Shown in pieces: positions 7,532 through 64,000 of a DNA stretch of 64,000 bases (position 1 is its first letter; every line of letters starts with the position of its first letter). A model generated the notes under the pieces. That model saw only the letters and a program-made list of their open reading frames with translations, was not told the DNA's origin and searched no databases. The stretch covers positions 33,164-97,163 of IMG/VR virus record IMGVR_UViG_3300046535_001092; one strand, given 5' to 3'. The stretch comes from a virus. The position numbers were made by a program, and so were the translations under genes.

Positions 7532-7532
7532 A

Positions 7533-8198: not shown

Positions 8199-8241
8199 CC
8201 TGCGGTGCCGTGGAGGGTTAGGTTGAGAGGGAAGGAGAGGT

Positions 8242-9532: not shown

Positions 9533-9533
9533 C

Positions 9534-9785
9534 ATGAACTTCAACTCCAGTGGGCGTATTAAGACCTCTGTCTTAGCTAAGATGGCTAGGTTGAATGCAT
9601 CTGTCTTGAGAGAAGATGGTAGGATTGAGAGGATGTGCAATCATGGGATTGGTCATACTGTTGGCAATGCTGCTGATACTCCTAGAGGTGAGTACTTCTG
9701 GAGCCATGGCTGCGACGGCTGTTGTACAGGATGGGAGAAGGATGATGGGACAGTCTATGAGGCTCTTCAACCTACTGAGGACTGA
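9534..9785 (+). CDS. small Cys/His-rich protein
   Basis: ERMCNHGIGH and HGCDGCC motifs. Confidence 0.65.
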   Translation: MNFNSSGRIKTSVLAKMARLNASVLREDGRIERMCNHGIGHTVGNAADTPRGEYFWSHGCDGCCTGWEKDDGTVYEALQPTED

Positions 9786-9963
9786 GGATGTCTCGGGTGT
9801 GAGTGGAGTGGGAAGGGTAGCTCAAGGAGTGCAATTCCATGATGGTCAGTGTGTTGTCTCATGGTTTGGGGTCTATCATAGTATAGAGGTACATCCCAAT
9901 ATTGAGACTGTAGAGAAGGTTCATGGACATGAAGGAAAGACTAAGGTTGAATGGTTAGACTAA
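9616..9963 (+). CDS. conserved phage protein (DVSGVSG...HGH motif); real start probably near 9745
   Basis: RxFxLxRxEDVSGVSGxGxVAxGVxFxDG...HGHEGKT pattern recurrent in phages. Confidence 0.65.
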   Translation: MVGLRGCAIMGLVILLAMLLILLEVSTSGAMAATAVVQDGRRMMGQSMRLFNLLRTEDVSGVSGVGRVAQGVQFHDGQCVVSWFGVYHSIEVHPNIETVEKVHGHEGKTKVEWLD

Positions 9964-10078
9964 CATCCCCCTGAGCAGGGGGTTAACCGATGGGTGAGGT
10001 GTAACTATTGATTATAGTTGCTATTATCGTGGCGGTGATTGGATTGAGAGTGGTGTTGGAGTATAGAGGAAAGATATA

Positions 10079-10288
10079 ATGCAGTATAAGATAGTTTATA
10101 CACATGGATCATGGTATACGTTTCCATATGAAGTGTATAGAAAGTATAGTTTTGGGTGGGCTATAGTTAACACTTACCTTACTCTAAAAGGAGCCAAGCG
10201 TAAGGTAGCTAAGATCGCTAGAGAAGAAGCTAAAAAGAGTGGTAAGGACTCTGACAGTGAAACTATATGGGAAGGGGTTATCGTATGA
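10079..10288 (+). CDS. hypothetical protein
   Basis: ORF coupled to its neighbours. Confidence 0.6.
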   Translation: MQYKIVYTHGSWYTFPYEVYRKYSFGWAIVNTYLTLKGAKRKVAKIAREEAKKSGKDSDSETIWEGVIV

Positions 10289-10458
10289 GATTAAAGGTTA
10301 GTAGAGACAGTAATCGTAAGGCGTATCTAAGGGTTCCACGCTCACTTCTACGTAAGATTGGAGTTAAGAATGGAGACACCATTAAGGCCGAGTATGTTCA
10401 GTATAGCCTGCCGCATCCTTCAATTGGACCTGGCTACATCACTATCTTTAGAAAGTAA
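10285..10458 (+). CDS. AbrB/MazE-like DNA-binding protein
   Basis: YLRVPRSLLRKIGVKNGDTI swapped-hairpin pattern. Confidence 0.65.
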   Translation: MRLKVSRDSNRKAYLRVPRSLLRKIGVKNGDTIKAEYVQYSLPHPSIGPGYITIFRK

Positions 10459-10466
10459 GGTATCTA

Positions 10467-10628
10467 ATGAACGCTAAGGTTAAGCTCGACTACAAGACAG
10501 GGGAGTACTATTTAGTACTCCCTCCAGAGGTTGTTAATCTCCTTAAGTGGGGAGATGGGACTAAGCTTGTAGTGGATGTCCCTACTACACATAAGGATCA
10601 GATTGTGGTACATAGATATGGTAGCTGA
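10467..10628 (+). CDS. second AbrB/MazE-like protein (53 aa)
   Basis: YLVLPPEVVNLLKWGDGTKLVV; translated by hand. Confidence 0.6.
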   Translation: MNAKVKLDYKTGEYYLVLPPEVVNLLKWGDGTKLVVDVPTTHKDQIVVHRYGS

Positions 10629-10845
10629 GTTTATCCTTAAGTATAATGACGGAAGGGAGGCTATGAGGTTTGCCTTCCACCCTAGGTCATTCTTTAGATG
10701 GTTAGCTACTCCTGGACAGGAGATTATCTGTGAGGATGGATATAAGATTAATGAGATTAGTACTATGTGCCATACACCCCTACAAAGCTCTCTTATAACA
10801 GAGTATATACCTGAAGATCCTGAAGATGATTGGAGAGACTATTAA
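10618..10845 (+). CDS. hypothetical protein
   Basis: ORF; start moved to ATG 10618. Confidence 0.55.
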   Translation: MVAEFILKYNDGREAMRFAFHPRSFFRWLATPGQEIICEDGYKINEISTMCHTPLQSSLITEYIPEDPEDDWRDY

Positions 10846-10983
10846 TGTCTAAATCCTTATGTCCTACATGTAAATTACCGATTAAAAAGGGTGACATCCA
10901 CGGTATAATGGATGCATCTTATTCTATCTACTGTATAGTGTCTATGATTACTACAAATCCTAAGAAACTAGGAGTTATTAAGA

Positions 10984-48129: not shown

Positions 48130-48669
48130 TTAAGAGGTTGGCTCGATATTGTAGGACACAATGATCGTTAGGGTATTTGCAGCGTTGCCGCCAGTGAGCA
48201 CACCTGAACCATTGTTATCCATGAAGACTTGTAGGGGTGAGTTATCGTTAGATGCCTTTGCAATGGTGGCTGCAACGGAGATCGACCCATTTGCACTTGG
48301 AAAGATGGCTACTGGGGACAAGTCCACACAACTCACGTAACCGAGGGCAAGGAAGGTGCTTACATCCGTAATAGCTCCTGCCGTGCTATTGTTGACAAGG
48401 GGGTTACACATGTAGTCGGTTGTGGTGTTCTGAACCCCTATAGCAGCAAAGGTCGTATTAATGTTCGTGTAGGCCCCAGCTGCAAAACTTCCTGTTAGGG
48501 AGACGGCTATGGGCTTAATCCTAAAACCAGATCCAGGTGCTGAGACAATGTCAATTGGAGTTGTAGGGAGTGCTTTGATTTCGGCATTCGTTAGGATGGC
48601 CCGGACAATATGATGTCTGGCTGTGCCACCAGCACTATCAGCCGAAAATATAGTAGAAAGACTTGCCAT
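48130..48669 (-). CDS. virion structural protein, paralog 3 (LPTTP...LTGGNAAN domain)
   Basis: Domain shared with the two upstream ORFs. Confidence 0.7.
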   Translation of the reverse strand: MASLSTIFSADSAGGTARHHIVRAILTNAEIKALPTTPIDIVSAPGSGFRIKPIAVSLTGSFAAGAYTNINTTFAAIGVQNTTTDYMCNPLVNNSTAGAITDVSTFLALGYVSCVDLSPVAIFPSANGSISVAATIAKASNDNSPLQVFMDNNGSGVLTGGNAANTLTIIVSYNIEPTS

Positions 48670-49178
48670 TAGACAGGCTCCGCAACATAGTAAAGGGTAA
48701 CTCGTAGGGTGTTGGCAGCATTGCCTCCGGTAAGGTTACCGCTACCGTTGTTATCCATAGAGATTCTGATAACCTGGTTATCAACATCGGGGATACCAGG
48801 TGAAGCTGTGGGATAGTTCCACTCAGTAGAGCCAGAAGCAGCTCCTGAACCTAAGATAGTGGCTAGATTAACCAAGTCAATTGGGTGGTTCTGGGCGTTA
48901 CCAAAGATAGCTGATACTGCTGTGGCCGCTGTATTCATGCTATTGTCATTGACACAGAGGGGGGCCATTACCCAGTAGCCACTAGGAACATCTAATTGGA
49001 CTGTAGAATATGTGGTGTTAATGTTGGTGTAGGCACCTGCAGCAAACTTCGTTTCAGCTGTCCCACCTAGGATACGTGTACGGAATCCTGAACCCTGAGC
49101 CGCAATCACAGTGATTGGTGTGGTAGGAAGGGCCTTAATTTGTGCGTCAGTGAGAATAGTGATTGAACGTTTTAACAT
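48669..49178 (-). CDS. virion structural protein, paralog 2
   Basis: Same domain. Confidence 0.7.
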   Translation of the reverse strand: MLKRSITILTDAQIKALPTTPITVIAAQGSGFRTRILGGTAETKFAAGAYTNINTTYSTVQLDVPSGYWVMAPLCVNDNSMNTAATAVSAIFGNAQNHPIDLVNLATILGSGAASGSTEWNYPTASPGIPDVDNQVIRISMDNNGSGNLTGGNAANTLRVTLYYVAEPV

Positions 49179-49182
49179 GATG

Positions 49183-49839
49183 TTATGGGAGGGTAATGGT
49201 TTTATAGTCTACAATGACTACTAGACTATTAGCAGCATTTCCACCTGTGAGGTTACCTAAAGCTGCGTTAGAGATAGTAAGTTTTAAGGCTGTATTTGCA
49301 TTAGTAACTGACTGCCCAACAAAGGTTGTTATACCCCAATCATTAAAGTCTTCATTCTCAGAGGATGGACAAGTGATTGACTGGATAACACCTGTAGTTG
49401 ATGTAAGAAGATCACTTAATTGGGTAAACCCTGCAATTGTCGAGTCATTCCCAATATAGTTACTAGCATCATCTACCCACTTAGCGAACATATAACCATC
49501 TGGACTGATGTTTGTATAAGCAGTTGCTCCTGCCTTAAATACGAAGGTGATAAGGGAGGGCCAGATAATCTTGCCTGCCCCAGGCGCTGCTACTAGGGTG
49601 ATAGGGGTGGTTGGGAGGGCTAGGATATTGGCGTTAGTGAGGGTGACTGTGGCTGAGCCTGAACCTGTGGAGCCTGTTCCACCAATCTGGAACCATGCAC
49701 CACTATACCAGATGAACACACTCCCGGTGTCAGTCTCATAGAATTCTACGAGGATGTTGACAGGGGGGTTGGGGACGAACGCTAGTCTGTCAGCGTTGGT
49801 GCCATAAGTGAGGAATTTGTCTAAGGTAGTATCTGACAT
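49183..49839 (-). CDS. virion structural protein, paralog 1, with tail-fibre-type N-terminal motif
   Basis: GT.ADR..FYETDTG..W..W followed by the shared domain. Confidence 0.7.
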   Translation of the reverse strand: MSDTTLDKFLTYGTNADRLAFVPNPPVNILVEFYETDTGSVFIWYSGAWFQIGGTGSTGSGSATVTLTNANILALPTTPITLVAAPGAGKIIWPSLITFVFKAGATAYTNISPDGYMFAKWVDDASNYIGNDSTIAGFTQLSDLLTSTTGVIQSITCPSSENEDFNDWGITTFVGQSVTNANTALKLTISNAALGNLTGGNAANSLVVIVDYKTITLP

Positions 49840-52962: not shown

Positions 52963-53097
52963 TTACTTCTTCTTGTTAGACTTGCCAGCTTTACTTAAGG
53001 CGATAGCAACTGCCTGCTTCTGAGGCTTACCAGCTTGCATCTCGGCCTTGATATTGTAACTGACTACTGATTTACTTGATCCATTGAGTAGCGGCAT
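52963..53097 (-). CDS. 44-aa basic conserved phage protein (MPL..GSS...NI..E..AGKPQKQAVAIALSKA)
   Basis: Translated by hand; motif widespread in phage structural regions. Confidence 0.8.
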   Translation of the reverse strand: MPLLNGSSKSVVSYNIKAEMQAGKPQKQAVAIALSKAGKSNKKK

Positions 53098-53099: not shown

Positions 53100-55238
53100 T
53101 TAAGCTCTTTCTTCTTCGCGTGTCTTGATGTCGAATCTAATGAGTTCCCAACGTGGGACTGTGGAGATAGAAGGGGGTGGAACTGGAGGTACCGGAGGTA
53201 GAATTGCCTTCCTAGTGATCCATATTGGGCAAGACTGTGAAGCTCCAAATCGAGCTGTGGGGGCTATGGTAATTTGTGGAAGGAAGGCGGCGTTGGTATC
53301 TCCCCCAGGTGCGTAGCGAGCAAACTCATAATTCGGGATGAGATCACCAGTGGTAGAGATAGTTGAAACATCACTCACCTTAACATTGCGGTACTCGCTG
53401 AAACCACTCTGAGTATAGCTGCCAAGAAAGTTGAAGGCTTCCTGAATCCAAACCCAGTAGGAATTGGGATCGTCTAAGGCGTGAGTAAGGCGGTCTAGGA
53501 GGTTAGGTATGGCTAGTGAGCTAACTAATGCCCCCGCTGGGGTGTAGGTGTTGACAAGACCATCGTGGTTATTCTTGACAAAGGGGACTACGATATTTCC
53601 GTCCTGTAGGACTAGAATGTCGCAGGAACCACCTGAGATGTTTGGCCTAGTGTGGTAACCTACAGGGGCAGCCGTAAGGTCAGACATTGCAATGTTATTG
53701 ACAAGGTCCCATCTCTTAATAGCGTTGTCGGTATTGGTTCCAACTGTATAGTAGAGGATGGTGTCGTCTAATGATACAGCCATTCCCATAAACACAAAAC
53801 CTGTAATTGGGATATCCCAAATCGTAGCACCAGGTAACCCAGTAACAGAGTCAATAGTCGTAACTTTAGCTAATGTATTGCTCATTGCCTGTCCGACATA
53901 GAACGTATCGCTTCGATTACTTGTTACAAGGTAACCCCTATTGGTCATCGGAGGAACAGCTATTCTGCTGAAGAGGAGGTTTAGATCCGCATCATACATG
54001 AATAGGTATTCATTCGCGTCGATGACATCATCACCACTTAGAAGTAGAGTACCATTCGGCAGGCATTCTGTGTTGTTGGCGATAGGGAAGAGGTTCTTAA
54101 ACTTAAGAGGTTGCCCTGTTGATGCACTTAGGAGAGCTAGAGGAAGCCCAAACTCACCATCTCCGTCATCTGTAATAGCAAGAGAGCCTATTGGCACAAC
54201 TTCATCAGGTGCTTTTAGTCCTGTATATAATAGGACGGCAGGGGTAACCGCTGTACCACCATGCGAGTGTACTTGGCAGTAGTAGGTATGGCCTTCAAAG
54301 ACTGGGACTTGGATGGGAGCATTGAAGTTGCTACCATTGATAAACACTATGTAGTAGACACCATTGTTAGCGTTGTCTAAGCCATCATAGATATAGGTTT
54401 CTGGAACGTAGCCTGTGTTAAAGGTGCCATAGTTACAGAGACCAATGACCGTGTCACCTGCTACTGCGGTGTACTTAAACCATACATCGTGGGTGGTAGT
54501 GTCTCTTACATTCTCTACATAGGCTACAGGGAGAGCACCTAGGTCAATAGCGGTGGCAGGGGTAAGGTTGGGGATACCGCTGACAATGATTGGACCGTCA
54601 GATAAGGTAGCAGTTCCGACTAGTGTCCAGGTTCTATTGTTACCTGATACATCTGTGAGATCGGCTGGACCTGTGAGAGGGGTGTCACAGAAGGGAGTCG
54701 CGTGGACGGCTGTAGCCGAGCACATTTCCGCTTTGATCTCGGTGGCCGTGAGCTTAGCTTGGAAGGAACGGTAGTATTGGAAGGCAAGATTAGGTGAGAC
54801 ACCCGTTAAATCAAATCCAAGTCTTTCAGCAGCAAATGTAGCCGCACTAAGGTCTACAGCAGTGGCAGCCTGAAAGAGATTCCCATTCATATAGTATGAA
54901 GCTATATGAGTAGTGGCATCGTAGGTTACTGCAATGTGCGCCCAGATAGTTTGAATCTGAGTAGCAGGGTTTGTACTCGTTGTTGTCGGGACATTATTTT
55001 GTGAGAATAGAATTAAGTTGTCACTTAATGCTTCTGTAGAAAGATTAGAAGAGCTAATAGTTACTGCTGCTGCAGCAAATGTAGCATCTCCTAGAACTGA
55101 TGCAGTCCTATTGTTCCCACTAACACGAGGTCCAGTAAAAGTCACCCAGTACATGAACGTGAAGTCACTCGCAGGACTGAGGAAGCTGCCAGTTGTGCGG
55201 GCAAGGCCATTCCCTGTAGTGGTAAACTTAATCGCCAT
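53100..55238 (-). CDS. appendage / receptor-binding protein: LamG-like + Ig-like + beta-propeller, C-terminal tag
   Basis: DFTFMYW, WAHIAVTYD, YMNG (LamG); AIDLG..DVWFKYTA; propeller repeats. Confidence 0.7.
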   Translation of the reverse strand: MAIKFTTTGNGLARTTGSFLSPASDFTFMYWVTFTGPRVSGNNRTASVLGDATFAAAAVTISSSNLSTEALSDNLILFSQNNVPTTTSTNPATQIQTIWAHIAVTYDATTHIASYYMNGNLFQAATAVDLSAATFAAERLGFDLTGVSPNLAFQYYRSFQAKLTATEIKAEMCSATAVHATPFCDTPLTGPADLTDVSGNNRTWTLVGTATLSDGPIIVSGIPNLTPATAIDLGALPVAYVENVRDTTTHDVWFKYTAVAGDTVIGLCNYGTFNTGYVPETYIYDGLDNANNGVYYIVFINGSNFNAPIQVPVFEGHTYYCQVHSHGGTAVTPAVLLYTGLKAPDEVVPIGSLAITDDGDGEFGLPLALLSASTGQPLKFKNLFPIANNTECLPNGTLLLSGDDVIDANEYLFMYDADLNLLFSRIAVPPMTNRGYLVTSNRSDTFYVGQAMSNTLAKVTTIDSVTGLPGATIWDIPITGFVFMGMAVSLDDTILYYTVGTNTDNAIKRWDLVNNIAMSDLTAAPVGYHTRPNISGGSCDILVLQDGNIVVPFVKNNHDGLVNTYTPAGALVSSLAIPNLLDRLTHALDDPNSYWVWIQEAFNFLGSYTQSGFSEYRNVKVSDVSTISTTGDLIPNYEFARYAPGGDTNAAFLPQITIAPTARFGASQSCPIWITRKAILPPVPPVPPPSISTVPRWELIRFDIKTREEERA

Positions 55239-58174
55239 TAAGCCCTCTCCTCATCTCTAGGCTTAGCATCGAACCTATGAAGTTCCCATCTAGGGATTGT
55301 GGAGATAATGGGGTTAGGAGGGTTAGGTGGAGCGAATGGGTTAGCTCGATAGAGGACTATGGAGGTGCAAGAAGCATAACCTAGCTGTGTCCAAACATCC
55401 ACAACCTGTGCTCCGGTCTGCATGTCGAACTTGAAGAGGGAGGTGGAGTCCTGGTCGAGGACCCAGAAGAATCTACCGTCATCTTGAAGTTCTACGTCTG
55501 CTAAGGAGAGGGAACGATCTGGAGCATTAGTCGTATAGGTTGTTACAATGTTACCAGCTAGATCTGTACGGTAGATATTAGAGCCGTTGGTGTAGAGCAT
55601 CCCTCCATTAGGTGTGGTCGCGGTGATGGGTAGGGGGAAGACACCTTTGAGACCTGGGTTAGGACCGGTACCGACAGGGACTGTGGCAAAGTCGGGGAGT
55701 TGAGTATTACCTGCTACATCATAAGCTTTGATCTTGACACCACCGTTAGGTAGATACCATCCACCTGAGGTGTAATAGAAGATAGTACCAGTTGCTGGAT
55801 CAAGCTGACCATAGTTGGATCCACCGACTTCCATAGCAGTTGTGCCAATGGTAGCTTCTGGGAATGGAGCACCTGGTTGATCATCAGCATGGATACAGTC
55901 TATGGTGTTAAGATCCCCTGTCCCATTAAGAGCTACAGTATCTTGGTAAGAGAAGAGGTTATCATCTACGTGCTTGAAGCCATCTCCGAACCATCCCGCT
56001 GTGAGCATACCTGTATCGCGGGCAATATCGATGGCTGCGAGGTGGACATTATGAAAAAATGGATAGGTGCCGAAGTGTGAGCCTAGTGGGTCGCTCATGA
56101 AATCGATTTCAGCTGTGCCAATGTTAAGGGTGGCGAGGTCTACGATTTCAATAAAATCATAACCCTGGCCGAAGATCGCACAGTAGAGCCTAAGACCTGT
56201 ATGATCTGGGGGACCATTGAAGTCCGTCATTGGACGAAGAGTGTAGTCGATGGCTAGCCCAGAGACAGCGAGTCCACCGAAACCGCTAGTAATGGCAGCA
56301 AGAACACCGTCTTTTGTGTAGCGGGCTACGAAACTTGCAGAGCCTAGAATAACATCCCCATCAGCTAGATCTTGTGCATAGAGGACTTGGAACCGAACCA
56401 TTCCGCCTGCAGAGGGTGAATGGTAAATATCACTATAACCTTCGACATAGAAGTAGTAGGTAGTACCAGCTACAGCATTAAAAATGCTATTAGAACAAGA
56501 AGTGATAGGAGTGTGTGTTGTGCCGTCAAGGAGGGTAACTCCTGGTCCACCATTGCCTGTCCAGACATGGATATTTGTAGGCTGGACACTGCCAATTGTG
56601 TGAGGAATGACTTGACCATCACGCTCAGCTGTCCACTTATACCATAATGAACGAGTACCCTGATCGGTAGTGCGGTTGTCTAGGAAGCCACTATCGAATG
56701 GAAGGGTGCCGATATCCTGGGCAGTAGCAAAGGTGTTATTAGGAAGCGGGGTAATCGTGACTGTCTGCTCGACAAAGGTATGAGAGAAGTCAAAGTAGGA
56801 TAGTCTCGGGAAACCATCGTTCTGCTCTGCATCTCCAGCAGTTGCATCAGCACATCCAGGACTATTGATATCTAGAACACCATTACCTGCAATAGCAAGG
56901 CCACGATAGTTAGAGCAGCCATAGTGCATCCTTGCTACGTTCCATTTATTAGGTGGGAAGACAGGTGCTGGAAAGGAGGTAGCATTGGTTGCATGATAAC
57001 CAAGTTCAATACAGACTCTATCACCAGCTTGACAAACTACTGAGTTGAGTGTCTGAGCACCTATAAGGTCACTGAAGGTAAGAGTGATAGGATTCCAAGG
57101 CTTGGTGTCTGTATACTTGTCTAATAGGGTTCCTCTAATAGTGCAGGAGTCACCAACTGAGACATACATGTGGACTCTAAAATAACCTGTAGGGATTGGG
57201 TTACCCGTAGATGTATCATTTCTAACAATACCTACAGCAACACATAGGTTGAAGGTGCCATCTATGGTTTGAGCGGCTAGAGGAGGAGTGAAGTATCTAA
57301 ACTGGAGTTCGTTAACTGTGTCTTTGTTTGTAGAGATCTGGTAAGCTTGGATGATTCCCCCATCACTCTTAAACTGGGAGAGTTCAAAGGGTCTATGCCA
57401 GTTAGAATATCCACCTGGTCCATCAGCGTTGCCGTCCCACTCACCATGCAGGGGACCATAGATGAAGGTTGGAAGACCTCTCGTAGAAAGGTAGTAGCGA
57501 GTACCGGATGAGGTTGAGGTGATGTCTTGCTGAAAGACAGCAATGATCCCTACGTTATCACCTGTGACTGTACATTTCCATACATCAGTTGTACCTGGAA
57601 CAGCTTTAGTTACACAGCCACTTGTAAGAGATGCCGCTGTCGCATTGCCACCAGTGTTCTGGGCAAGATGGTTAATAGAAATATCTGCGTAGACTTGAAC
57701 AGCTGGAAACTGATAGGGTTGAAAGATGTTGCCAAAGTTGTTGGCTGAGCCAGCTGCAACCATCCCAAAGATAAGTTGATGTGGTAGAGTTGTAGTAACA
57801 GCTGGGGCAATGTTAGCTGGGGCTGTAGCATTGGCTTGGGAGACAGCACTTACTACAATATCTCCACTTGTAAGACCGCCTGTGAAGGTGACGATATGTC
57901 CCTGTGCAGCTGTGGCTAGTCCTGTGATTGAGTAGCTAGCACCTTCGCCTGAGGCCCTCCTCCAGTACATCTCCCCACGAATAGCGCTACTAATATTCTG
58001 AGCTACAAGGGTCCAACCTGCAGGCATGGTCGCGTAGCTCGTCCCCTTGTGGGAGAGGCACATGATCATGATATCACCATCAACTGTAGTGTTTGGTTTG
58101 GTGATAGAGAGGGAGGTTGTTCCGGTGGCTGAGATTGAGCGCTGTTTGATTCCCCAGCCTGGGGCGATAGGCAT
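55238..58174 (-). CDS. appendage / receptor-binding protein: beta-sandwich domains + beta-propeller, same C-terminal tag
   Basis: KP...DGD..PAGWT; NNTFATA..SLWYKWTA; propeller repeats. Confidence 0.7.
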   Translation of the reverse strand: MPIAPGWGIKQRSISATGTTSLSITKPNTTVDGDIMIMCLSHKGTSYATMPAGWTLVAQNISSAIRGEMYWRRASGEGASYSITGLATAAQGHIVTFTGGLTSGDIVVSAVSQANATAPANIAPAVTTTLPHQLIFGMVAAGSANNFGNIFQPYQFPAVQVYADISINHLAQNTGGNATAASLTSGCVTKAVPGTTDVWKCTVTGDNVGIIAVFQQDITSTSSGTRYYLSTRGLPTFIYGPLHGEWDGNADGPGGYSNWHRPFELSQFKSDGGIIQAYQISTNKDTVNELQFRYFTPPLAAQTIDGTFNLCVAVGIVRNDTSTGNPIPTGYFRVHMYVSVGDSCTIRGTLLDKYTDTKPWNPITLTFSDLIGAQTLNSVVCQAGDRVCIELGYHATNATSFPAPVFPPNKWNVARMHYGCSNYRGLAIAGNGVLDINSPGCADATAGDAEQNDGFPRLSYFDFSHTFVEQTVTITPLPNNTFATAQDIGTLPFDSGFLDNRTTDQGTRSLWYKWTAERDGQVIPHTIGSVQPTNIHVWTGNGGPGVTLLDGTTHTPITSCSNSIFNAVAGTTYYFYVEGYSDIYHSPSAGGMVRFQVLYAQDLADGDVILGSASFVARYTKDGVLAAITSGFGGLAVSGLAIDYTLRPMTDFNGPPDHTGLRLYCAIFGQGYDFIEIVDLATLNIGTAEIDFMSDPLGSHFGTYPFFHNVHLAAIDIARDTGMLTAGWFGDGFKHVDDNLFSYQDTVALNGTGDLNTIDCIHADDQPGAPFPEATIGTTAMEVGGSNYGQLDPATGTIFYYTSGGWYLPNGGVKIKAYDVAGNTQLPDFATVPVGTGPNPGLKGVFPLPITATTPNGGMLYTNGSNIYRTDLAGNIVTTYTTNAPDRSLSLADVELQDDGRFFWVLDQDSTSLFKFDMQTGAQVVDVWTQLGYASCTSIVLYRANPFAPPNPPNPIISTIPRWELHRFDAKPRDEERA

Positions 58175-58176
58175 GG

Positions 58177-58353
58177 TTAGGGTTGGTCCTTATACTTCTC
58201 TATGAACTTATGAGCGTGAGAGACTAGATCTTTGACTGGAGTGCCTGGGGCATACATCCTACGAATGGTGTGGACAATAAGACCCATCTTCTTGGTTTTA
58301 GTGGCGTCTTTAACAGTCATGTACTGAATGGAGCGGGGGGATCCTATCGGCAT
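58177..58353 (-). CDS. 58-aa basic hypothetical protein
   Basis: Translated by hand; lies between the promoter and the 978-aa gene. Confidence 0.5.
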   Translation of the reverse strand: MPIGSPRSIQYMTVKDATKTKKMGLIVHTIRRMYAPGTPVKDLVSHAHKFIEKYKDQP

Positions 58354-58407
58354 TGGAGTGAGTGGATGAGGGGGTTGATGAGGAAAAGGCGGCAGGTAAT
58401 GACAAAT

Positions 58408-58436
58408 ATTATACCATAAATGACCCAGAATAGCAA
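58408..58436 (-). promoter_or_regulatory. sigma70-type promoter TTGCTA-17-(TG)TATAAT
   Basis: Perfect extended -10 in an intergenic gap. Confidence 0.7.
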
Positions 58437-58450
58437 GTATTTAGAGGGCA

Positions 58451-58771
58451 TTAACTGGTTCTCACACCTGGCTTTACGGTGAATGTGCCTATCGACAAAA
58501 CAGAGTAGTCATCGGTATTGGTACGGACTACGTCATAGACATAGGATCCTGGCTGGATTGAGGTGTTGTCTCTATCTATGATGACTTTGAAAGTGCCATT
58601 GGTAGGATCTACAAGGCTTCCATCAATGGAGCAGATGGCCGAGTTTGAGGTGTAACTTTTCTTCAGGGTGAAGGCGACAGTCCAATCAGTGATATCTTCA
58701 ACTGGACTCATAGTGAAGTCGAGTTCGATGTCTTCACCCTTGTAGATTATGATGTCTTGGACTTTAGCCAT
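58451..58771 (-). CDS. BppU-N-like Ig-fold adaptor protein
   Basis: I.KGED..L.F..DIT.W..F.LK..GTF.V..T..PG.Y.YDV. Confidence 0.65.
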   Translation of the reverse strand: MAKVQDIIIYKGEDIELDFTMSPVEDITDWTVAFTLKKSYTSNSAICSIDGSLVDPTNGTFKVIIDRDNTSIQPGSYVYDVVRTNTDDYSVLSIGTFTVKPGVRTS

Positions 58772-58774
58772 AGT

Positions 58775-61576
58775 TTAGCAGTGTGACTTGAGGGTGACTG
58801 TGGTGCCGTCTTCAGCGATTAGGATGATATCTGTGTCGCCATGAGCACGGAGGGTGACGGTAGTTCCATCTGCAGCAATCATGTTAAAGGAGGTGAGGCT
58901 TGCTGCGAGTAGGTGGATGTTGGTGGAGTCTACCCCTATGAGTGGGATGACTACGCAGGGAGGAGCAGGAACTGGCGGTGGAACGAAGGGGATTGGGAGC
59001 CAGAACCCTGTCCATGGAGCCTCATACACTCGTGTTGGGATACGACGGATGTCTGGGCTTAGGAAGCTTGGAGTGTCACGATTTACCCTCTGGTCGAACT
59101 GTGGGAAGATGGTGACAGGTGTTACACGCTTGTAGTAGTTGTAGACAGGCTGTGAGAGGGTGAAGTGATCGGTTTGTCTAACTGCGACATCCGGTGGGTA
59201 CTTCGCCGCTACTTCATAACGTAAGAACTGCTTGAGTAAGTATGATCTAAACTCTGGTTGAAGAAGAGTGAAGTGATCGGTCTGTCGAGTGGTGTTATCA
59301 ACAGGATACTTAGCTTCAACTTCATATCTAGGCCACTGCTTTAGGAGATAAGATCTAAGCTCAGGCTGGGATAGGAGGAATTCGAAGGTTGCCTGAGTTG
59401 TAGCTCCTGGGATTGGGTTGATTGAGCCTACAATATAGCGGTTACGTTCCTTGTTTAGGTATGAACGTCTCTCAGGTTGACCTAGAAGGAACTCGTAGAG
59501 TTGTTGGGAGGTTGCCCCTTCTAGCCTCTTAACTACATCAACTAGATAGCGGTTGAGGTTCTTGAGGGCGTAGCGAGCTTGGTCAGGCTCGTTGGTTGGG
59601 AAAATGTAAGAGTTGTTGTCCCTAGTAGCTCCGTCGAGTCGTGGTGGGGCTGGAACCTGGTATCTCTCTAATTCCTTGAGTAGGTAGGATCTAACTTCGG
59701 GCTGACCTAGAAGGAACTCATAACTTTGAATGTTAGGAGTGGTTCCTAGGATGGGCATGATTGCCTGAGTGATAAACCTATTTAGCTGAAGCTCTCTGTA
59801 CGAAGCCATCTCTGGCTGAGAGACTGGAGGAATAGGTGAGGTGTCCTGAGACGTAGCACCTTCTAGCCTCTTAACTACGTCTACGATGTAGCGGTTGAGG
59901 GTAGACTTCTCTAGGTAGCTCCAGATTTCTGGCTGACTTAGAAGGAATTCATAGGTCTGCTGAGCAGTTGGCTCCTGAGGAGACTTGATTGCCGCTGTAA
60001 TATAGCGGTTGAGTTGGAGAAGAGCATAGCGACGTAGTTCAGGTTGATTTGGGAAGAACTCAAACGAACCCTGAGTAGTTGCCCCTTCTAGTCGTGGAAG
60101 GGCATCTACGATACGTCTAGCAATCGGATACCAGCGGTCGGGGATAGAGCCGTTGATTAGGGATGGGATTAGCTGCTGAGAGGTAGCTCCATCGAGACGG
60201 GGCGGAGCACCTACAAGGTAGCGACTACGTTGAGTTAGCCTAGAGAACCAGTTAATCTCTGGTTGGTCTGGGAAGAACTCATACTTCTGTTGAGAGGTTG
60301 CACCATCAAATCTCTTGATGGGATCAACGATGTATCTATTTCTCTGGATGAAGCGGAGGAACTGTGTAGTCTCAGGCTGACCTGGGAAGAACTCATATGT
60401 CTGTTGGGCAGTGGGTTCCTGTGGACTCTTAATTGCTCCAACGATGAACCTATTGAATTGCAGACGTAGATACTGTGATAGCTCTGGTTGGGAGACAGGT
60501 GGAACTGGGAATGTTTGTTGAGAGGTTGCACCTTCGAAGCTCTTGACTGTGTCAACGATGTAACGGTTCCGTTGGATGAACCGTAGGAATGAGCTAGTCT
60601 CTGGCTGTGATGGGAAGAACTCGTAAGTTTGCTGAGAGGTGGCTCCTTCGAATCTTGGAAGTGCATCTACAATCCTACGAGCAATTGGATACCATCTGTC
60701 AGGGATGGAACCATTGATTAGAGAGGGAATGAGTTGCTGATTAGTTGCACCCTCAGTGCGTGGGGGTGGGGCTGTGTTGAAGCGGAGGAACTGCTTAAGT
60801 CTATCGTAACGAGATTGATCGGGCTGGCTCTGGGTATATGGTGGATGTGTGTCGGTTACTGTTGTTACGTCAAGGGCTGCTCTAGATGTATTGTAGACGA
60901 ATTGACGCTCCTCAGCACCTATGATGAGAGTAACAGAGGAGCCTGTAACTGCTGTTACTGTATCAGTAACTGTTGAGGGGTGGATGAGGATAGATGGCTG
61001 AACAAAGGGACGCTCATCGATTCCAAAGATGATGAGAAGGGGAACACCTGCTACGCTATCAGTGACTGTGGCTCCGCTGTGGATGGAGATGGGTGGAGCG
61101 AAGACGAACTGATTATCCTTCTTACCTCTTGGGGTGTTCGTTGGGAGGTTGAAGACATCTGTTTGAGTAGGTGCAGTTACGGTGACATGGATGGCAGCTG
61201 GAGAAGCAGGGTAGACAAACTGAGTTTCCTCAGGTCCCATGCTTAGGAGTAGGAGGACCCCTGTGACATCACTCGGAATAATAATAATTGGGTCTACTTG
61301 AGGAGTTGGCCCAGTAAAGGATCTACGAATATTTTTAACAAGCTCAAATCTATTTATCTGGGGTTGAGAGATAGTAGATGGGAGCGTTGGGTGAGACTGT
61401 TGAACAGTTGCACCCTGATGAATCTGTGGAGCTGCAGCTACAATATAACGGTTATACTGAAGAAGAGTATACTGAGACCGTTCAGCAAATCCTACTGGTG
61501 GAGTAGGGTGGGTTTGTTGGCGTGTTGCGCCTTGCTGCTCAGCGAGGGAGCGTGGAGCTGGAAGCTGGCGTAACAT
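58775..61576 (-). CDS. tandem-repeat protein (about 17 units of 35-40 aa), putative fibre/scaffold
   Basis: Repeated GATxQQxxxFxxxQPExxxYxxxxxNRYxV. Confidence 0.75.
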   Translation of the reverse strand: MLRQLPAPRSLAEQQGATRQQTHPTPPVGFAERSQYTLLQYNRYIVAAAPQIHQGATVQQSHPTLPSTISQPQINRFELVKNIRRSFTGPTPQVDPIIIIPSDVTGVLLLLSMGPEETQFVYPASPAAIHVTVTAPTQTDVFNLPTNTPRGKKDNQFVFAPPISIHSGATVTDSVAGVPLLIIFGIDERPFVQPSILIHPSTVTDTVTAVTGSSVTLIIGAEERQFVYNTSRAALDVTTVTDTHPPYTQSQPDQSRYDRLKQFLRFNTAPPPRTEGATNQQLIPSLINGSIPDRWYPIARRIVDALPRFEGATSQQTYEFFPSQPETSSFLRFIQRNRYIVDTVKSFEGATSQQTFPVPPVSQPELSQYLRLQFNRFIVGAIKSPQEPTAQQTYEFFPGQPETTQFLRFIQRNRYIVDPIKRFDGATSQQKYEFFPDQPEINWFSRLTQRSRYLVGAPPRLDGATSQQLIPSLINGSIPDRWYPIARRIVDALPRLEGATTQGSFEFFPNQPELRRYALLQLNRYITAAIKSPQEPTAQQTYEFLLSQPEIWSYLEKSTLNRYIVDVVKRLEGATSQDTSPIPPVSQPEMASYRELQLNRFITQAIMPILGTTPNIQSYEFLLGQPEVRSYLLKELERYQVPAPPRLDGATRDNNSYIFPTNEPDQARYALKNLNRYLVDVVKRLEGATSQQLYEFLLGQPERRSYLNKERNRYIVGSINPIPGATTQATFEFLLSQPELRSYLLKQWPRYEVEAKYPVDNTTRQTDHFTLLQPEFRSYLLKQFLRYEVAAKYPPDVAVRQTDHFTLSQPVYNYYKRVTPVTIFPQFDQRVNRDTPSFLSPDIRRIPTRVYEAPWTGFWLPIPFVPPPVPAPPCVVIPLIGVDSTNIHLLAASLTSFNMIAADGTTVTLRAHGDTDIILIAEDGTTVTLKSHC

Positions 61577-62302
61577 TTAGACCATATGCCAATCATGGCG
61601 GTAGTGATTAGATGGTTGCTGAACAGGGAAGTAGGGTTCTAGGGCTGTTAAGGTTGAGATGTCTACTTCGATAGCGCCAGAGGAGAATGCAGATGGTGAT
61701 GTGCCTCCCCATGTAATAGTGGCCGAGGTTTCTCCAGAGTCTATAGTTGCTACGTCTAGTCCAGTCGCGGGAACGTTATAGCCTAGGTCAGCTCGTGAAG
61801 TGTAGGCAGGAGAACTACGAACTGTAGTGCCAGCTGTGTTCGATCCGTTGAAGACGTAGGTGATGATAGGATTGGCTGGAGCTGGGGTAAAGGTGAAGGC
61901 GGGGGCTGGGGTGCCTGAAGCAACGTTTGATTGGAAGGTAGACTGTCTGATGAGAGGTAGGCCAGTTCGGGTTGTTGAGGTAACCTTGAGGACAACACCT
62001 CCTCCTCCTGTGCTACTTGCTCCAGTGATGGTAAAGACTGTGGAGGTGGCTGAGCCAACTCTAGAGTTTCGCATGAAGATGAAAGCAGAGTCAGCACTAG
62101 TGTTCTTGACTGAGGCAGCACCTGTGATATTAGTATAGACTCCGAGGGTATCCGTGTTGTTATCAGAGACTGTAGGAGTGGTGACAATGCCTGAGTTACC
62201 ACAGACAATAATAATCATATCCCCAACAGCGGGAGTGGCTGTAATGGTATGGGAACCTGTTGTGGTATTCCATGCGTTGCCTAGGGAGGTAACTGCGGCC
62301 AT
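61577..62302 (-). CDS. Ser/Thr-rich beta-sandwich virion appendage protein
   Basis: PAVGD.III..PTVSDN pattern. Confidence 0.7.
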   Translation of the reverse strand: MAAVTSLGNAWNTTTGSHTITATPAVGDMIIIVCGNSGIVTTPTVSDNNTDTLGVYTNITGAASVKNTSADSAFIFMRNSRVGSATSTVFTITGASSTGGGGVVLKVTSTTRTGLPLIRQSTFQSNVASGTPAPAFTFTPAPANPIITYVFNGSNTAGTTVRSSPAYTSRADLGYNVPATGLDVATIDSGETSATITWGGTSPSAFSSGAIEVDISTLTALEPYFPVQQPSNHYRHDWHMV

Positions 62303-63351
62303 TATCTACGTCTACGCTGAATCATGATTGTAGGGCGGGCGATATAACCTAAGGATGCGGCACCTGAGCTAAATGGTGTTAGCGCACCCCATGAGAGAAA
62401 CGTTGAAGAAACTTTCTGGTTGTTGTAGCTGGCGGTGATGTAGTCGTCCGACCGCTTGATGGTCGAGACACGGACCTCGTCAAGATCCCCGTCGAAATAG
62501 ACTTCATCTAGTGATTGCCGGTTCCCTAAATCAAGTATCCCTGCGGCGGTCCCAGTTCCACCCGTTGCGCCAGCAGACGCTGATCCATTGTTCCACGTCT
62601 TGATGCCACCAGCACCTGTGCGCTGAAGGACGATGTGTAGCCAGCCACTCTGACCTATGTTGGCGTCGAGCGAACCTCTCACCTGCGTGATCACGCCCGT
62701 CGCATTATACTGCTGGATCTCGGCTCCTCCAGATGTATTACCGATAGCAAAAATGCCGCCAAAGGGAGTCGGCGCCACACCGCTATACTTGACAATAACC
62801 TCCATCGTGAAATCACCAGAACCGAGGTTCGTGGAAACCCCCTCCATGTATTGTGATGACGCCGCAACAAAGTGGGCGGCTCCTCCAGCAACTTCTGCTG
62901 CTGAGGCCGTTGCGCCGTGATTCGTGAGCGTATGACCGCCGCTCACTGAGCTATTCAGGCCGAGTGTGGTGCCATCGCCGAAATGGTAAACTTCCAAGAA
63001 GCTGCTGTCCCACGCCGAGGTTGAGGAACCATCAGTTGAGAGACTAGAATTACCAAAGGCTAGATAGAAGACTACGTTTGTTGAGGCGTCAAGGGTGGGA
63101 ATCTTGACATGCATCTCTAGCTGTCCTGTGATAGGAGTGTAGACTACAAGCTCAAAGGTAAGGGCTGTGGTGAGGGTGATGTCTGAATAGGGCCGGATGT
63201 CGAAGCCACTGCTATTGAGGACATACCCACCATTACCTGTAGTTTTAAGATCGGCGTCGGTGACATAGATTGCGACTGGGAAATCAGTAGAGTTCGATGA
63301 CCCACATTGGGTGTGATCTATTGTTACTGATTTGTAGTAAGTGAAAGCCAT
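62302..63351 (-). CDS. DUF2341 + LamG-like lectin protein
   Basis: TIDHT..DFPV..G.DIR..VKIP.L..Y.AFGN; then FTME..W.H..FDGDLDEVRVS. Confidence 0.8.
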   Translation of the reverse strand: MAFTYYKSVTIDHTQCGSSNSTDFPVAIYVTDADLKTTGNGGYVLNSSGFDIRPYSDITLTTALTFELVVYTPITGQLEMHVKIPTLDASTNVVFYLAFGNSSLSTDGSSTSAWDSSFLEVYHFGDGTTLGLNSSVSGGHTLTNHGATASAAEVAGGAAHFVAASSQYMEGVSTNLGSGDFTMEVIVKYSGVAPTPFGGIFAIGNTSGGAEIQQYNATGVITQVRGSLDANIGQSGWLHIVLQRTGAGGIKTWNNGSASAGATGGTGTAAGILDLGNRQSLDEVYFDGDLDEVRVSTIKRSDDYITASYNNQKVSSTFLSWGALTPFSSGAASLGYIARPTIMIQRRRR

Positions 63352-64000
63352 TATCTACGTCTACGGTATTGGATGGTAGGGCCTAGTGAGATAAAGCCTG
63401 CTGAACCTGACCCAGAAATAAATGAAGCAATTGTTACTTTACCGTCGCCAACTGACCATGTGACATTTTCAGAGGTCGCTGTGGTTTGGATTAGGTAGGC
63501 AATGCCATTTCCTATATGTTGGGCTGTAACGTTAGGTACGGCTATACCAGTAAATCCACTATCTACAGTCGCTGTAGCAGAGTCTATCGAACTCATCCCA
63601 GATACGACAACCTCATTATTCTGGGTAGGTGTAATACTTCCCGATTGGCCCGAGAAGTTTGAATTAAATTGATCTAGTGGTGATCCTGAGGCCCCAGAGA
63701 ATGCCACTACACCTATTGATGGAAATGAGCCAGCGCCAGGGCTAGTGAGTGTAAAAGTATGGCTTGAGTCTATAGTAGGTGAAACACAATAGTATAGTCT
63801 ATCGGTGCTATCTGTATTACCAATACTGACAATGGAGGTCCATGTATTTGACTTACTATCACTAAGTATTGGTTCTGTGGCACCGGAGTACCAAGAAGAA
63901 CTAATAACTATAAGGTTGGCTCCAGTTGTATTGATGGCCCCGGTTGTTATATTAATGCTATCTGTTGAACCAGCGATTACCGAGGCAATAAAACTATATG
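63351..64000 (-). CDS. beta-sandwich virion appendage protein (5' end just outside the window)
   Basis: Frame stays open from 63998 (YSFIASVIAG..INTTGANLIV..SDSKSNTWT), so it is longer than the 118-aa track ORF. Confidence 0.75.
   Translation of the reverse strand, partial: YSFIASVIAGSTDSINITTGAINTTGANLIVISSSWYSGATEPILSDSKSNTWTSIVSIGNTDSTDRLYYCVSPTIDSSHTFTLTSPGAGSFPSIGVVAFSGASGSPLDQFNSNFSGQSGSITPTQNNEVVVSGMSSIDSATATVDSGFTGIAVPNVTAQHIGNGIAYLIQTTATSENVTWSVGDGKVTIASFISGSGSAGFISLGPTIQYRRRR

Follow-up and report, generated by a model that had tools for sequence, protein, structure and literature searches.

How does a phage fix several adhesins to one particle when their N-termini are of unrelated kinds? 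A contig of 97,163 bp raised this question. The window, meaning the whole stretch of 64,000 nucleotides that was analyzed, ends where the contig ends. A 22-bp terminal repeat on the contig indicates a circular assembly, and the source phage (G000) is novel, uncultured, and circularly assembled at ~97 kb. It is probably short-tailed, as 1618-aa and lysozyme-domain proteins sit at the podophage internal-virion-protein position. Block 53100–64000 is the adhesin/fiber module of this phage (Table 1). All its ORFs lie on the minus strand with the coordinates of the preliminary description, and the 217-aa ORF has its first two codons across the contig junction. Five proteins end in one of two short peptides, called tag 1 and tag 2 here, and a flexible linker precedes each peptide. 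Their bodies comprise ConA-like lectin, DUF2341, beta-sandwich, and beta-propeller domains. Their N-termini fall into three unrelated kinds, no shared N-terminal anchor or docking peptide was found in the five, and the sole common short module is C-terminal. In the textbook arrangement of receptor-binding proteins (RBPs), the N-terminus anchors and the C-terminus carries host specificity.

Table 1. Features of the adhesin/fiber block (window positions, except for the last row)
Feature	Coordinates	Strand	Basis and remarks
712-aa protein	53100..55238	-	ORF; adhesin-type, tag 1 at C-terminus
Tag 1 of 712-aa protein, last 21 residues	53103..53165	-	sequence, BLAST
978-aa protein	55238..58174	-	ORF; adhesin-type, tag 1 at C-terminus
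Tag 1 of 978-aa protein, last 21 residues	55241..55303	-	sequence, BLAST
106-aa protein	58451..58771	-	ORF; small beta-sandwich, BppU_N / LtfC-like kind
933-aa repeat protein	58775..61576	-	ORF; candidate rope-like fiber backbone
241-aa beta-rich protein	61577..62302	-	ORF; directly upstream of repeat gene
349-aa DUF2341 + ConA-like lectin protein	62302..63351	-	ORF; tag 2 at C-terminus
Tag 2 of 349-aa protein, last 10 residues	62305..62334	-	sequence
217-aa beta protein	63351..64000	-	ORF open at window end; tag 2 at C-terminus
Tag 2 of 217-aa protein, last 9 residues	63354..63380	-	GPTIQ matches repeat-unit start
358-aa paralogue of 349-aa protein	contig 29-1105, outside window		next gene upstream of 217-aa gene

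Tag 1 follows a Pro-rich linker in both the 712-aa and the 978-aa protein and is identical at 16/21 residues, which confirmed the earlier observation. BLAST between the two proteins returned it as a separate 22-residue stretch with 77% identity (E 9e-6). Between the two genes, 9/17 conserved codons differed synonymously, which indicates selection on the peptide and not on the DNA. The tag is highly charged, and its only conserved hydrophobic residues are W, L, and F. Its last 4–5 codons overlap a purine-rich, ribosome-binding-like sequence of the next gene; in the 978-aa gene, the last codons overlap both this sequence and the start codon of the 712-aa gene. Such an overlap would suit tags that are relics or by-products of fused ancestors, partly kept by nucleotide constraints at gene junctions and without docking. 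Against this origin, the first 16 residues are not part of the ribosome-binding stretch, and they stayed conserved although their codons changed synonymously many times.

The bodies that carry tag 1 are much less alike. The 712-aa protein consists of a ConA-like lectin (residues ~1–180), a beta-sandwich (220–345), and a beta-propeller (350–625), followed by a conserved body end, the linker, and the tag. Its Pfam Laminin_G_3 match (E 6e-5, 23.6 bits) lies below the cut-off, which its homologues P0195 and P0196 exceed. In the AlphaFold2 monomer model, the lectin fold was present and the propeller reached pLDDT 80–90, and Foldseek matched the model to NanB/NanC sialidases (lectin + propeller) and to generic propellers. 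Residues 628–712 had pLDDT <35. These last 85 residues, strongly conserved ones included, were thus modeled as disordered, which would fit a segment whose folding requires a partner. The 978-aa protein has an N-terminal part without assignment, then a beta-sandwich, a propeller, the linker, and the tag. It had no sequence match in Pfam, PHROG, or PDB, and none by tblastn to GenBank phages. A relationship of its N-terminus to the 217-aa domain or to the P0152 N-domain was unsupported by BLAST, phmmer, and jackhmmer. Between the two proteins, BLAST aligned the beta-sandwiches at 31% identity over 88 aa, and the propellers were weakly similar (25% over 146 columns, hhalign E 5e-5). The N-terminal domains had been called different; the bodies are indeed only 25–31% identical where they align, but they have a beta-sandwich and a weakly similar propeller in common. 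A tag at 77% identity on bodies at 25–31%, together with the synonymous codons, was counted for conservation at the peptide level.

Homologues of the 712-aa protein carried other C-termini. The 709-aa homologue of phage G001 is 73% identical over residues 1–684 and has a different tail without tag 1; the DNA polymerases of G000 and G001 are only 27% identical. Five more homologues keep the body end and the Pro linker and then run into four other C-terminal modules. Scanning JGI metagenomes with the 712-aa family returned no match. An IMG/VR scan with the tag-1 alignment matched 22 pattern stretches, none of which was confirmed, and residues 668–712 had no match among 5.8 billion proteins at the lengths covered (391–1246 only). 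Within the collections searched, both tags are unique to G000, and no second genome had the same tag with the same partner.

Tag 2, described earlier on two proteins, was confirmed on both: the 349-aa and 217-aa proteins end in a Gly/Ser-rich linker, PTI, 2–3 residues, and four Arg. A third bearer was added just across the circular junction, where the 358-aa paralogue ends in PTTIMHYGRRR. Besides these three neighboring genes, no long frame of the genome ends in RRR (the raw count in the wrapped sequence was 4, with one gene seen twice). The Arg codons lie within a DNA string that recurs at gene junctions: at two junctions, an identical 19-nt string spans the four Arg codons, the stop codon, and the start codon that follows, a third junction has a near-identical string, and the 358-aa gene also has TAGATA ahead of its start, without coding for Arg there. 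This string favors the relic origin, as does the resemblance of both tags to the starts of modules fused in relatives. The PTI part differs at synonymous sites, which speaks against it. Taken with the ribosome-binding-like overlap of tag 1, the shared string suggested that, in each tag, a minor portion may be under nucleotide constraint. Poly-Arg as a Shine-Dalgarno by-product was partly rejected, because the codons are CGT/AGA and not AGG/GGA runs; the junction string remains. A PEP-CTERM or other sorting signal was rejected, as the tails contain no PEP motif and no transmembrane stretch.

The body of the 349-aa protein allowed tails to be compared across a family. It exceeded the Laminin_G_3 cut-off (28.1 against 27.6 bits) and had 287 homologues, many annotated with PF10102 (DUF2341) and PF13385 (Laminin_G_3). 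The tails of this DUF2341-LamG family form a few discrete classes. P0002, at 76% identity to the 349-aa protein, has another tail, whereas the 349-aa and 358-aa paralogues fall into different supported clades of the body tree and both have tag 2. On this tree, the class FFLIPN needed 7 changes for 7 rows, LLGVG 14 for 15, and TWITVP 3 for 3, each as many as shuffled labels need, and well-supported sister pairs carried different classes. These patterns indicate that tail classes were swapped repeatedly and that tags are uncoupled from body phylogeny. Tails also crossed between bodies: TTGK.FFLIPN ends both the DUF2341-LamG proteins of loci L005/L007-9 and the 271/284-aa proteins of G001, whose bodies are not BLAST-linked, and tails of the LLGVG type are also found on collagen-like proteins and on three members of the repeat family. 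No second genome in which unrelated neighbors have a common tail was found among 59 loci. Since tag 2 sits on three bodies of different lineages, spread or maintenance is needed, and not passive decay. Swapped, genome-private tails on exchangeable bodies are what an anchor would look like.

Relatives suggested where such an anchor could sit. P0197, whose body is 37% identical, and the 347-aa protein of L006 run on into the C-terminal ~100 positions of phrog_578, the tail-hub family; the profile match to these positions was significant in P0197, L007, L011, and L006. In L005/L007/L011 and G001, the hub family is split, with the N-part as a protein of its own and the C-domain closing the protein that follows, of 564–572 aa. 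As far as these fusions and splits indicate, C-terminal anchoring is in use within this phage group. Tag 1 occupies the position of the first residues of this hub (P22 gp10-type) C-domain. Both fit [IV]ST-x(1,2)-P-x3-L-x-R-[FW], a 7-position motif derived post hoc that had no further occurrence in 1.31 million six-frame residues. A reading of tag 1 as a significant match to the C-domain profile of the hub was rejected because the scores were negative, and the likeness is kept as a positional resemblance only. No phrog_578 protein was detectable in G000. A 627-aa protein at its hub position was rejected as a gp10-type hub (hhalign probability 0.1%, no phrog_578 in the genome), and it had no match in the IMG/VR scan.

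For tag 2, the resemblance is to the repeat protein. With 34–39% identity, two internal domains of the repeat protein P0183 match the body of the 217-aa protein (E 5e-28, 2e-31), which is also embedded in the repeat protein P0173. The tag on this protein begins with GPTIQ, the motif that starts the units of the 933-aa repeats; this likeness covers 5–7 residues and is not significant alone. The 933-aa protein contains 16–18 units of 37–38 aa, about four beta-type units of ~35 aa at residues ~100–240, and a C-terminal region with a 10-residue periodicity, the latter two read from the sequence. Two variant units (273–310 and 460–497) are near-identical. With a pI of 9.2, the main repeat region is slightly basic, which disfavors docking of poly-Arg there, and three beta-type units at ~100–240 are acidic (pI 4.7). 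Five units modeled with AlphaFold2 gave extended segments and a single short helix in each unit at low confidence (pLDDT 61, pTM 0.19), and the protein is predicted to be non-globular.

The repeats belong to a previously undescribed family of at least 74 representative clusters with 2–25 matched stretches each. One member, P0165, ends in the Pfam domain Gp77 (GP4 fiber-tail adaptor; E 6e-8, above cut-off). The 933-aa protein itself had no Gp77, phrog_578, or other recognized anchor domain in Pfam or PHROG, and no match by tblastn to GenBank phages or in the IMG/VR scan. Nor did it match PDB chains by sequence (GP4 and A1002 entries included, if present). In G001, a look-alike short gene with four repeats, seen by eye and by motif and missed by the unit profile, is followed by the 709-aa homologue. 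The neighboring 241-aa protein had no family match in Pfam or PHROG, and its relationship to the 217-aa domain or the P0152 N-domain was unsupported by BLAST, phmmer, and jackhmmer. Its C-terminus (YFPVQQP) aligns weakly with the middle of the repeat-unit profile, which is not significant alone. Elsewhere in the window, three paralogues of 169, 179, and 218 aa lie at 48130–49839; like the 106-aa beta-sandwich next to the repeat gene, they are candidates for small GP4-type fiber subunits, but sequence gave this no support, with no PDB-sequence or Pfam match.

The preliminary description had placed a repeat protein and a BppU-like adaptor gene between the two tagged pairs. The repeats stood. The adaptor, encoded by the 106-aa gene, matched Pfam BppU_N (PF10651) at E 3e-4 over 43/142 profile positions, and its 21.0 bits fell short of the 23.1 cut-off. 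The 106-aa protein also matched phrog_1084 (E 1e-15) and phrog_3304 (‘L-shaped tail fiber protein assembly’, E 5e-7). Its structural neighbors in the ESM Atlas were a ‘tail fiber protein’ (TM 0.91), an LtfC-like protein (TM 0.88), and a BppU-named cluster. The BppU_N fold class is plausible from these neighbors, and the protein, at best a putative family member, could be an adaptor or a fiber subunit.

The tags are real, conserved as peptides, and uncoupled from body phylogeny, and the fused homologues and the repeat family exist. From these comparisons, we infer that the tags bind and what they bind. Our preferred reading, to which we give a probability of roughly one half, is that the tags are chassis-specific C-terminal virion handles on exchangeable host-binding bodies, with tag 1 near the hub and tag 2 on the rope or capsid. 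The five adhesin-type proteins would most likely be fixed to the virion by these peptides, with their large bodies as the exchangeable host-binding parts and a polarity opposite to the usual N-terminal anchoring. Each tag looks like the first residues of a bigger anchoring module, which relatives have fused at the same position. Tag 1 would be the start of a split P22-gp10-type hub C-domain, and by this likeness its two bearers, of 712 and 978 aa, probably insert close to the hub or adaptor of the tail. Tag 2 would be the start of a repeat-protein unit; its three bearers are probably mounted on the rope-like protein of 933 aa, or else on the capsid. Against this reading, the hub C-domain profile does not score tag 1, G000 is without a detectable phrog_578, the repeat region is basic, and variable C-termini could be extra distal modules and not anchors.

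Both tag classes had been proposed to dock along the 933-aa scaffold, anchored through the 106-aa BppU-like protein, as a branched, many-headed filament. We consider this unlikely. Rope proteins with tandem docking sites are real in GP4, VP1, and A1002 (PMC13730344), the repeat family is extended, variable in copy number, and modeled as non-globular, P0165 has the Gp77 adaptor domain, and 217-aa-type domains are embedded in repeat proteins. The pairing of three acidic units with three poly-Arg tails and of two variant units with two tag-1 proteins also agrees with it, as numerology. However, known ropes bind 140–171-aa dimers by beta-augmentation (PMC13730344), not 700–1000-aa proteins through C-terminal peptides, and the main repeat region is basic. 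No link was found between tag 1 and the repeats; both the position and the motif of this tag speak for the hub domain instead. In G001, the four-repeat gene adjoins a homologue that lacks tag 1. The tags had also been tied to the repeat protein, but DUF2341-LamG proteins with C-terminal tails occur in phages without one in the fetched neighborhood. The 933-aa protein has no recognizable anchor domain, and the BppU_N match behind the proposed route of anchoring is below threshold. Overall, the earlier interpretation was partly supported: by comparison, the tags behave as portable, genome-specific modules, and a gene fusion through the 217-aa body links one bearer of tag 2 to the repeat-protein family, which is not the case for tag 1.

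The tags could instead be assembly signals, such as foldon-type oligomerization nuclei or chaperone-recognition peptides, with virion attachment elsewhere in the proteins. C-terminal folding and oligomerization elements are common in phage fibers, among them intramolecular chaperone domains and the T4 fibritin foldon, a type of element with about 27 residues in a beta-hairpin propeller that trimerizes by itself. The phrog_3304 match of the 106-aa protein and the disorder of the tag regions in the monomer model are consistent with this. A highly charged tag 1 is untypical of a hydrophobic oligomerization core, and globular lectin/propeller bodies are not fibrous shafts that need registration. 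An oligomerization element should also travel with its body, yet close homologues have other tails, and no sequence similarity to foldon or chaperone domains was found. We regard assembly signals as rather improbable.

The boldest reading, and a quite doubtful one, is a giant heteromeric rope, in which the unit types of the 933-aa protein are addressed by different C-terminal peptides and display large exchangeable adhesins. The three poly-Arg-tailed lectin proteins would go to the three acidic beta-type units, the two propeller proteins to the two near-identical variant units, and a small subunit, for instance the 106-aa sandwich, to the 12–14 standard units. Each tag would then be a detached first segment of the structure that it completes, and the whole would be a programmable chain-like fiber with horizontally exchangeable adhesins. 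The relic origin is very unlikely given the synonymous changes in both tags and the three lineages that carry tag 2.

How receptor-binding modules are mounted on the particle sets host range. The comparison yields a signature of an anchor in the last 9–21 residues: chassis-specific, body-independent, of few classes, and repeatedly swapped. If C-terminal virion handles are the correct reading, a large group of uncultured phages, mostly from soil, attaches its lectin-type adhesins through the C-terminus, which would change how RBPs are recognized and delimited in metagenomes and would offer very small portable handles for phage engineering in laboratory systems. The repeat-protein clusters would be candidate ropes and would extend chain-like fibers beyond three cultured podophages.

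Among known systems, the cellulosome is alike as an idea, with many carbohydrate-binding modules held on a repeat scaffold by small terminal modules. Cohesins have ~150 aa, and the calcium-binding dockerins have ~70 aa. The units here have 37 aa and are predicted to be non-globular, and no block protein matched a cohesin or dockerin in Pfam at E up to 0.1, so ‘cellulosome-like’, as the locus had been called, is an analogy only. The adenovirus fiber tail docks on the penton base, and encapsulin cargo-loading peptides are C-terminal and point inward. In these systems, as proposed for the tags, a terminal peptide of 10–20 residues behind a flexible linker is enough to fix a large protein to a viral or HK97-type shell; the inward direction of the encapsulin peptides differs, and the likeness is one of description, with no sequence relationship claimed.

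RBPs of Klebsiella KP32-type and K1-5/SP6 phages combine N-terminal anchors or docking peptides with exchangeable specificity domains (PMC8262889). They resemble the present proteins in a chassis-specific short module, common to several RBPs of one phage, on exchangeable bodies. The polarity is reversed: here, the N-termini differ, and the shared module is the last 9–21 residues.

Rope-and-dock fibers are already known. The podophages GP4, VP1, and A1002 have chain-like tail fibers built on a rope protein with 5–11 tandem docking sites (Pang et al. 2026 PLoS Biol, PMC13730344; also Zheng et al. 2023 J Mol Biol 435:168258, as cited in PMC13730344), and A1002 carries two different subunit proteins on one rope (PMC13730344). 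As a possible likeness, G000 encodes a long protein in its fiber module, predicted to be extended and non-globular, that could carry many binding modules, and P0165, a member of its family, has the GP4 Gp77 adaptor domain. Unlike them, the candidate passengers are lectin/propeller proteins of 217–978 aa with C-terminal peptides, and the 16–18 units of the 933-aa protein, against 5–11 sites, are putative docking places. A1002 also has a split nozzle, whose base, gp42, receives its C-terminal platform and propeller pieces in trans from the rope protein gp39 (PMC13730344). The propeller proteins of G000 differ in that, in a sequence-level comparison, they keep only ~20 residues (tag 1) at that place. 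The likeness lies in the phrog_578 hub, which is split in L005, L007, L011, G001, P0197, and L006 as a C-terminal domain complementation of the same kind.

Two classes of C-terminal tag are present on adhesin-type proteins of this phage, an observation that our analysis confirmed and extended. When coordinates and sequences were re-read, the open reading frames and both tag pairs were present as the preliminary description had reported. Tag 1, the last 21 residues of the 712-aa and 978-aa proteins, is identical at 16 of 21 positions and forms a separate BLAST stretch with 77% identity. The two bodies had been called different. Most of their length is unalignable, but they have in common a beta-sandwich (31% over 88 aa, BLAST) and a weakly similar propeller (25% over 146 columns, hhalign E 5e-5). 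Tag 2, the PTI..RRRR ending of the 349-aa and 217-aa proteins, is also real. A third bearer was found outside the window: the gene directly past the contig junction encodes a 358-aa protein, paralogous to the 349-aa one at 36% identity. Genome-wide, the only long frames ending in RRR are these three mutually adjacent genes. No relatives of tag 1 or tag 2 were found in the collections searched.

The window forms the final 64 kb of a 97,163-bp contig, which carries a 22-bp repeat at both ends, so the assembly is circular; IMG/VR classes it as "direct terminal repeats", 100% complete. PHROG matches to a DNA polymerase, a helicase-primase, an exonuclease subunit, and a lysozyme-domain protein adjoining a 1618-aa protein identify it as a phage. 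Among GenBank phages, no relatives were found for the genes studied. On the minus strand, head genes and several small genes are followed by those for the 358-, 217-, 349-, 241-, 933- and 106-aa proteins. After a gap with a promoter-like site come the 978-aa and 712-aa genes, a 44-aa ORF, the 240-aa and 627-aa genes, further small proteins and large putative internal proteins. The tagged-protein block therefore sits between head genes and genes at the tail-hub position. Because of the sigma-70-like site, the two tag-1 genes may be transcribed separately, as one unit. The same gap holds a 58-codon ORF (58177-58353), read by eye. The 44-aa ORF contains a KQAVAIALSKAGK-type motif, of a kind that occurs in small phage and bacterial proteins. 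Three tandem paralogues, candidate small fibre subunits, have homologues in locus L006 of a relative, after its hub gene, and gave no Pfam or PDB sequence match.

Features of the tagged-protein region and of related loci
Feature	Positions	Strand	Description
Three tandem paralogues (179, 169, 218 aa)	window 48130-49839	-	31-43% identical; NNGSG.LTGGNA motif near C-terminus
44-aa ORF	window 52963-53097	-	strongly basic; starts 2 nt past 712-aa stop, ends just before 240-aa gene
Last ~85 residues of 712-aa protein	window 53103-53355	-	pLDDT below 35 (AlphaFold2 model), modelled without structure
Gap between 106-aa and 978-aa genes	window 58175-58450	-	sigma-70-like site TTGCTA, 17 nt, TATAAT near 58400-58432
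End of repeat protein	window 58775-58950	-	10-residue periodic beta-type region (h-L-h-A-E-D-G-T-T-V kind) and C-terminal cysteine
Tag-2 junctions	window 62295-62320, 63344-63370; contig 20-45	-	(AGG/AGA)CGTAGATAA then ATGGC at three successive junctions
LamG/collagen-like/glycosyltransferase cassette, two copies	G001 (record of L001) 7367-10972 and 72070-75917		three genes
Split phrog_578 hub	L005 11201-14201, L007 17282-20537, L011 8091-11082; G001 1864-3228 and neighbour		N-part ~377 aa

Tails are uncoupled from bodies in the relatives. The sole IMG/VR relative of the 712-aa protein, at locus L001 of a 76-kb genome (G001), is 73% identical over residues 1-684 and then carries an unrelated Cys-containing tail. 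The two phages are distant (only 27% identity between their DNA polymerases), so the body has travelled between them without the tail. Five further homologues keep the body end ARFG.S.SCP.W and the Pro-rich linker, followed by four other C-terminal modules. Similarly, a homologue 76% identical to the 349-aa protein (P0002) has a different terminus. The 349-aa and 358-aa proteins consist of DUF2341 plus a ConA-like lectin and belong to a large family. In its 112 members examined for tails, the last 15-25 residues are a Gly/Ser/Thr linker and a terminal peptide of 6-9 residues, which falls into few classes (FFLIPN, LLGVG, TWITVP, an aromatic FFLLF class, and others). On a tree built from bodies only, FFLIPN requires 7 changes for 7 rows, LLGVG 14 for 15, and TWITVP 3 for 3, no fewer than with shuffled labels. 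Different classes occur within sister pairs whose local support is 99-100%, and the 349-aa and 358-aa paralogues lie in different supported clades with tag 2 on both. A TTGK.FFLIPN tail, 9/10 identical, ends DUF2341-LamG proteins of four loci and also two G001 proteins that BLAST did not link to them. LLGVG-type tails also terminate collagen-like proteins and three repeat-family proteins.

Classically, a virion anchor is recognised as a short terminal module that tracks the genome and not the body, as known from an N-terminal case (PMC8262889). In this phage, the comparable module lies at the C-terminus instead. We favor the reading that the tags are chassis-specific C-terminal anchor peptides on exchangeable adhesin bodies, with a probability of roughly one half.

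Many DUF2341-LamG homologues (P0061, P0064, P0067, P0075, P0087 and others) begin with a signal peptide; once it is cleaved off, they would start with the same AF.YY that phage versions show after Met. Their aromatic FFLLFP-type tail largely tracks the body tree, unlike the phage classes. These are possibly cellular surface proteins using a similar C-terminal handle. G001 also contains two copies of a cassette whose three genes encode a LamG-like protein with FFLIPN as its terminus, a collagen-like protein (Gly-X-Y) with a terminal LL.KGVG, and a glycosyltransferase-like product; L005 and L007-L009 each have a single copy.

The preliminary description had proposed that both tag classes dock along the 933-aa repeat protein, anchored through the BppU-like 106-aa protein. 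A profile of 16 units of the repeat protein, searched against 1.84 billion proteins, matched 74 representative proteins, 53 below E 1e-10, with 2-25 matched stretches and lengths of 106-1059 aa; these proteins therefore make up a genuine phage family that has no name. At the C-terminus of one member (P0165) lies Pfam Gp77 (E 6e-8, above cut-off), the fibre-tail adaptor of podophage GP4. In two others (P0183 and P0173), internal domains match the 217-aa body over its full length at 34-39% identity (E 5e-28 to 2e-31), so this module belongs to the repeat chain in other phages. In their alignment, the 217-aa tail falls at the start of the next unit, and its GPTIQ is a common variant of the unit start. 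The 241-aa protein, whose gene lies immediately upstream of the one for the repeat protein, terminates in a motif that resembles the middle of a unit; each resemblance is insignificant alone. The 217-aa and 241-aa proteins gave no family match. The periodic end with its cysteine recurs in P0122, P0123 and L001 (7318-7938); in L024/P0128 the periodic region is N-terminal instead. Five modelled units formed no compact fold; at low confidence, each showed one 10-14-residue helix, and extended stretches containing Pro connected these helices. Two units of the 933-aa protein, at residues 273-310 and 460-497, are variants.

Known rope fibres with many subunits (GP4, VP1, A1002) speak for docking along this protein, yet we consider it improbable. 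Its repeat region is basic (pI 9.2; acidic only at residues 100-240). None of about 50 LamG loci has a repeat-family protein in the fetched region, so C-terminal tails of this family generally do not need such a scaffold. Across three locus comparisons, the LamG tail class shifts together with the head genes, with neck or hub genes 96-99% identical, which hints that LamG-family tails could dock on the capsid. G001 encodes a 206-aa protein with four look-alike repeats, not recognised by the unit profile, and a similar C-terminal region; a small gene and then the 709-aa homologue follow, the latter lacking tag 1. The proposed anchor is a small beta-sandwich, but its BppU_N match is sub-threshold; it strongly matches phrog_1084 (function unknown), weakly matches a T5 fibre-assembly family, and has LtfC-like Atlas neighbours. 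A Pfam search of the proteins excluded cohesin-dockerin membership, so the likeness drawn to cellulosomes is no more than an analogy.

In the AlphaFold2 model of the 712-aa protein, a lectin-type sandwich and another beta-sandwich accompany a beta-propeller modelled with confidence, with Foldseek matches to NanB/NanC sialidases (lectin plus propeller) and generic propellers. ARFG.S.SCP.W, the segment most conserved across all homologues, lies inside the low-pLDDT end, which may need an oligomer or a partner in order to fold. That the tags are assembly or oligomerisation signals is a less probable reading still. Two junction properties bear on the peptides. The final tag 1 codons also serve as the purine-rich sequence before the next start codon. 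The tag 2 Arg codons, stop, and next start form a 19-nt string, CGTAGACGTAGATAATGGC, identical at two junctions and similar at the third; TAGATA is also found before the GTG start of the 358-aa gene, and the common string may serve coupling or recombination at the junctions. This double use would suit tags that are relics or junction by-products, but 9/17 conserved tag 1 codons differ synonymously between the two genes, so selection acts on the peptide and this reading is the least credible.

For tag 1, the anchor-peptide reading may connect to a hub domain. In a homologue (P0197) whose body shares 37% identity with the 712-aa protein, the body end and Pro linker are the same and lead into ~110 residues, 45% identical to the C-terminus of an L007 572-aa protein. 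PHROG places both C-termini at positions ~365-472 of phrog_578 ("head closure Hc3", 486 positions), a family of the P22 gp10 type. The gene before the 572-aa gene encodes a 377-aa product matching positions 8-364 (E 4e-63). In L005, L007, L011 and G001, the C-domain terminates the next protein (564-572 aa), so the hub family is split there. In L006 the counterpart is spread over three ORFs: one of 125 aa (beta-sandwich), one of 347 aa (propeller) with PIRRLRRWMP at its end, and an overlapping one of 106 aa that encodes the remainder of the domain. Either a frameshift or a genuine split could account for this. Tag 1 lies where the first residues of this C-domain would be, and a single seven-position pattern, derived after the fact, fits tag 1 and those residues alike; the six-frame translation of all DNA fetched (1.31 million residues) has no further occurrence of it. 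The C-domain profile gives tag 1 no score, and this genome has no detectable phrog_578 protein. A correspondence of tag 1 to the C-domain start is suggestive only.

The split hub resembles the split nozzle of A1002 (published November 2026), where a truncated nozzle base is made whole by two C-terminal pieces of the rope protein, platform and propeller (PMC13730344). In the chain-like fibres of GP4, VP1 and A1002, the rope carries 5-11 dimers of 140-171-aa subunits via beta-sheet augmentation, and in A1002 one rope is common to two subunit species (PMC13730344). This precedent makes a scaffold-and-dock arrangement more plausible and less novel. The 933-aa protein is a candidate for such a rope. 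Compared with these fibres, the 933-aa protein is without a recognisable anchor domain, the candidate passengers differ in size and nature, docking would be through C-terminal peptides, and the tags are private to this phage.
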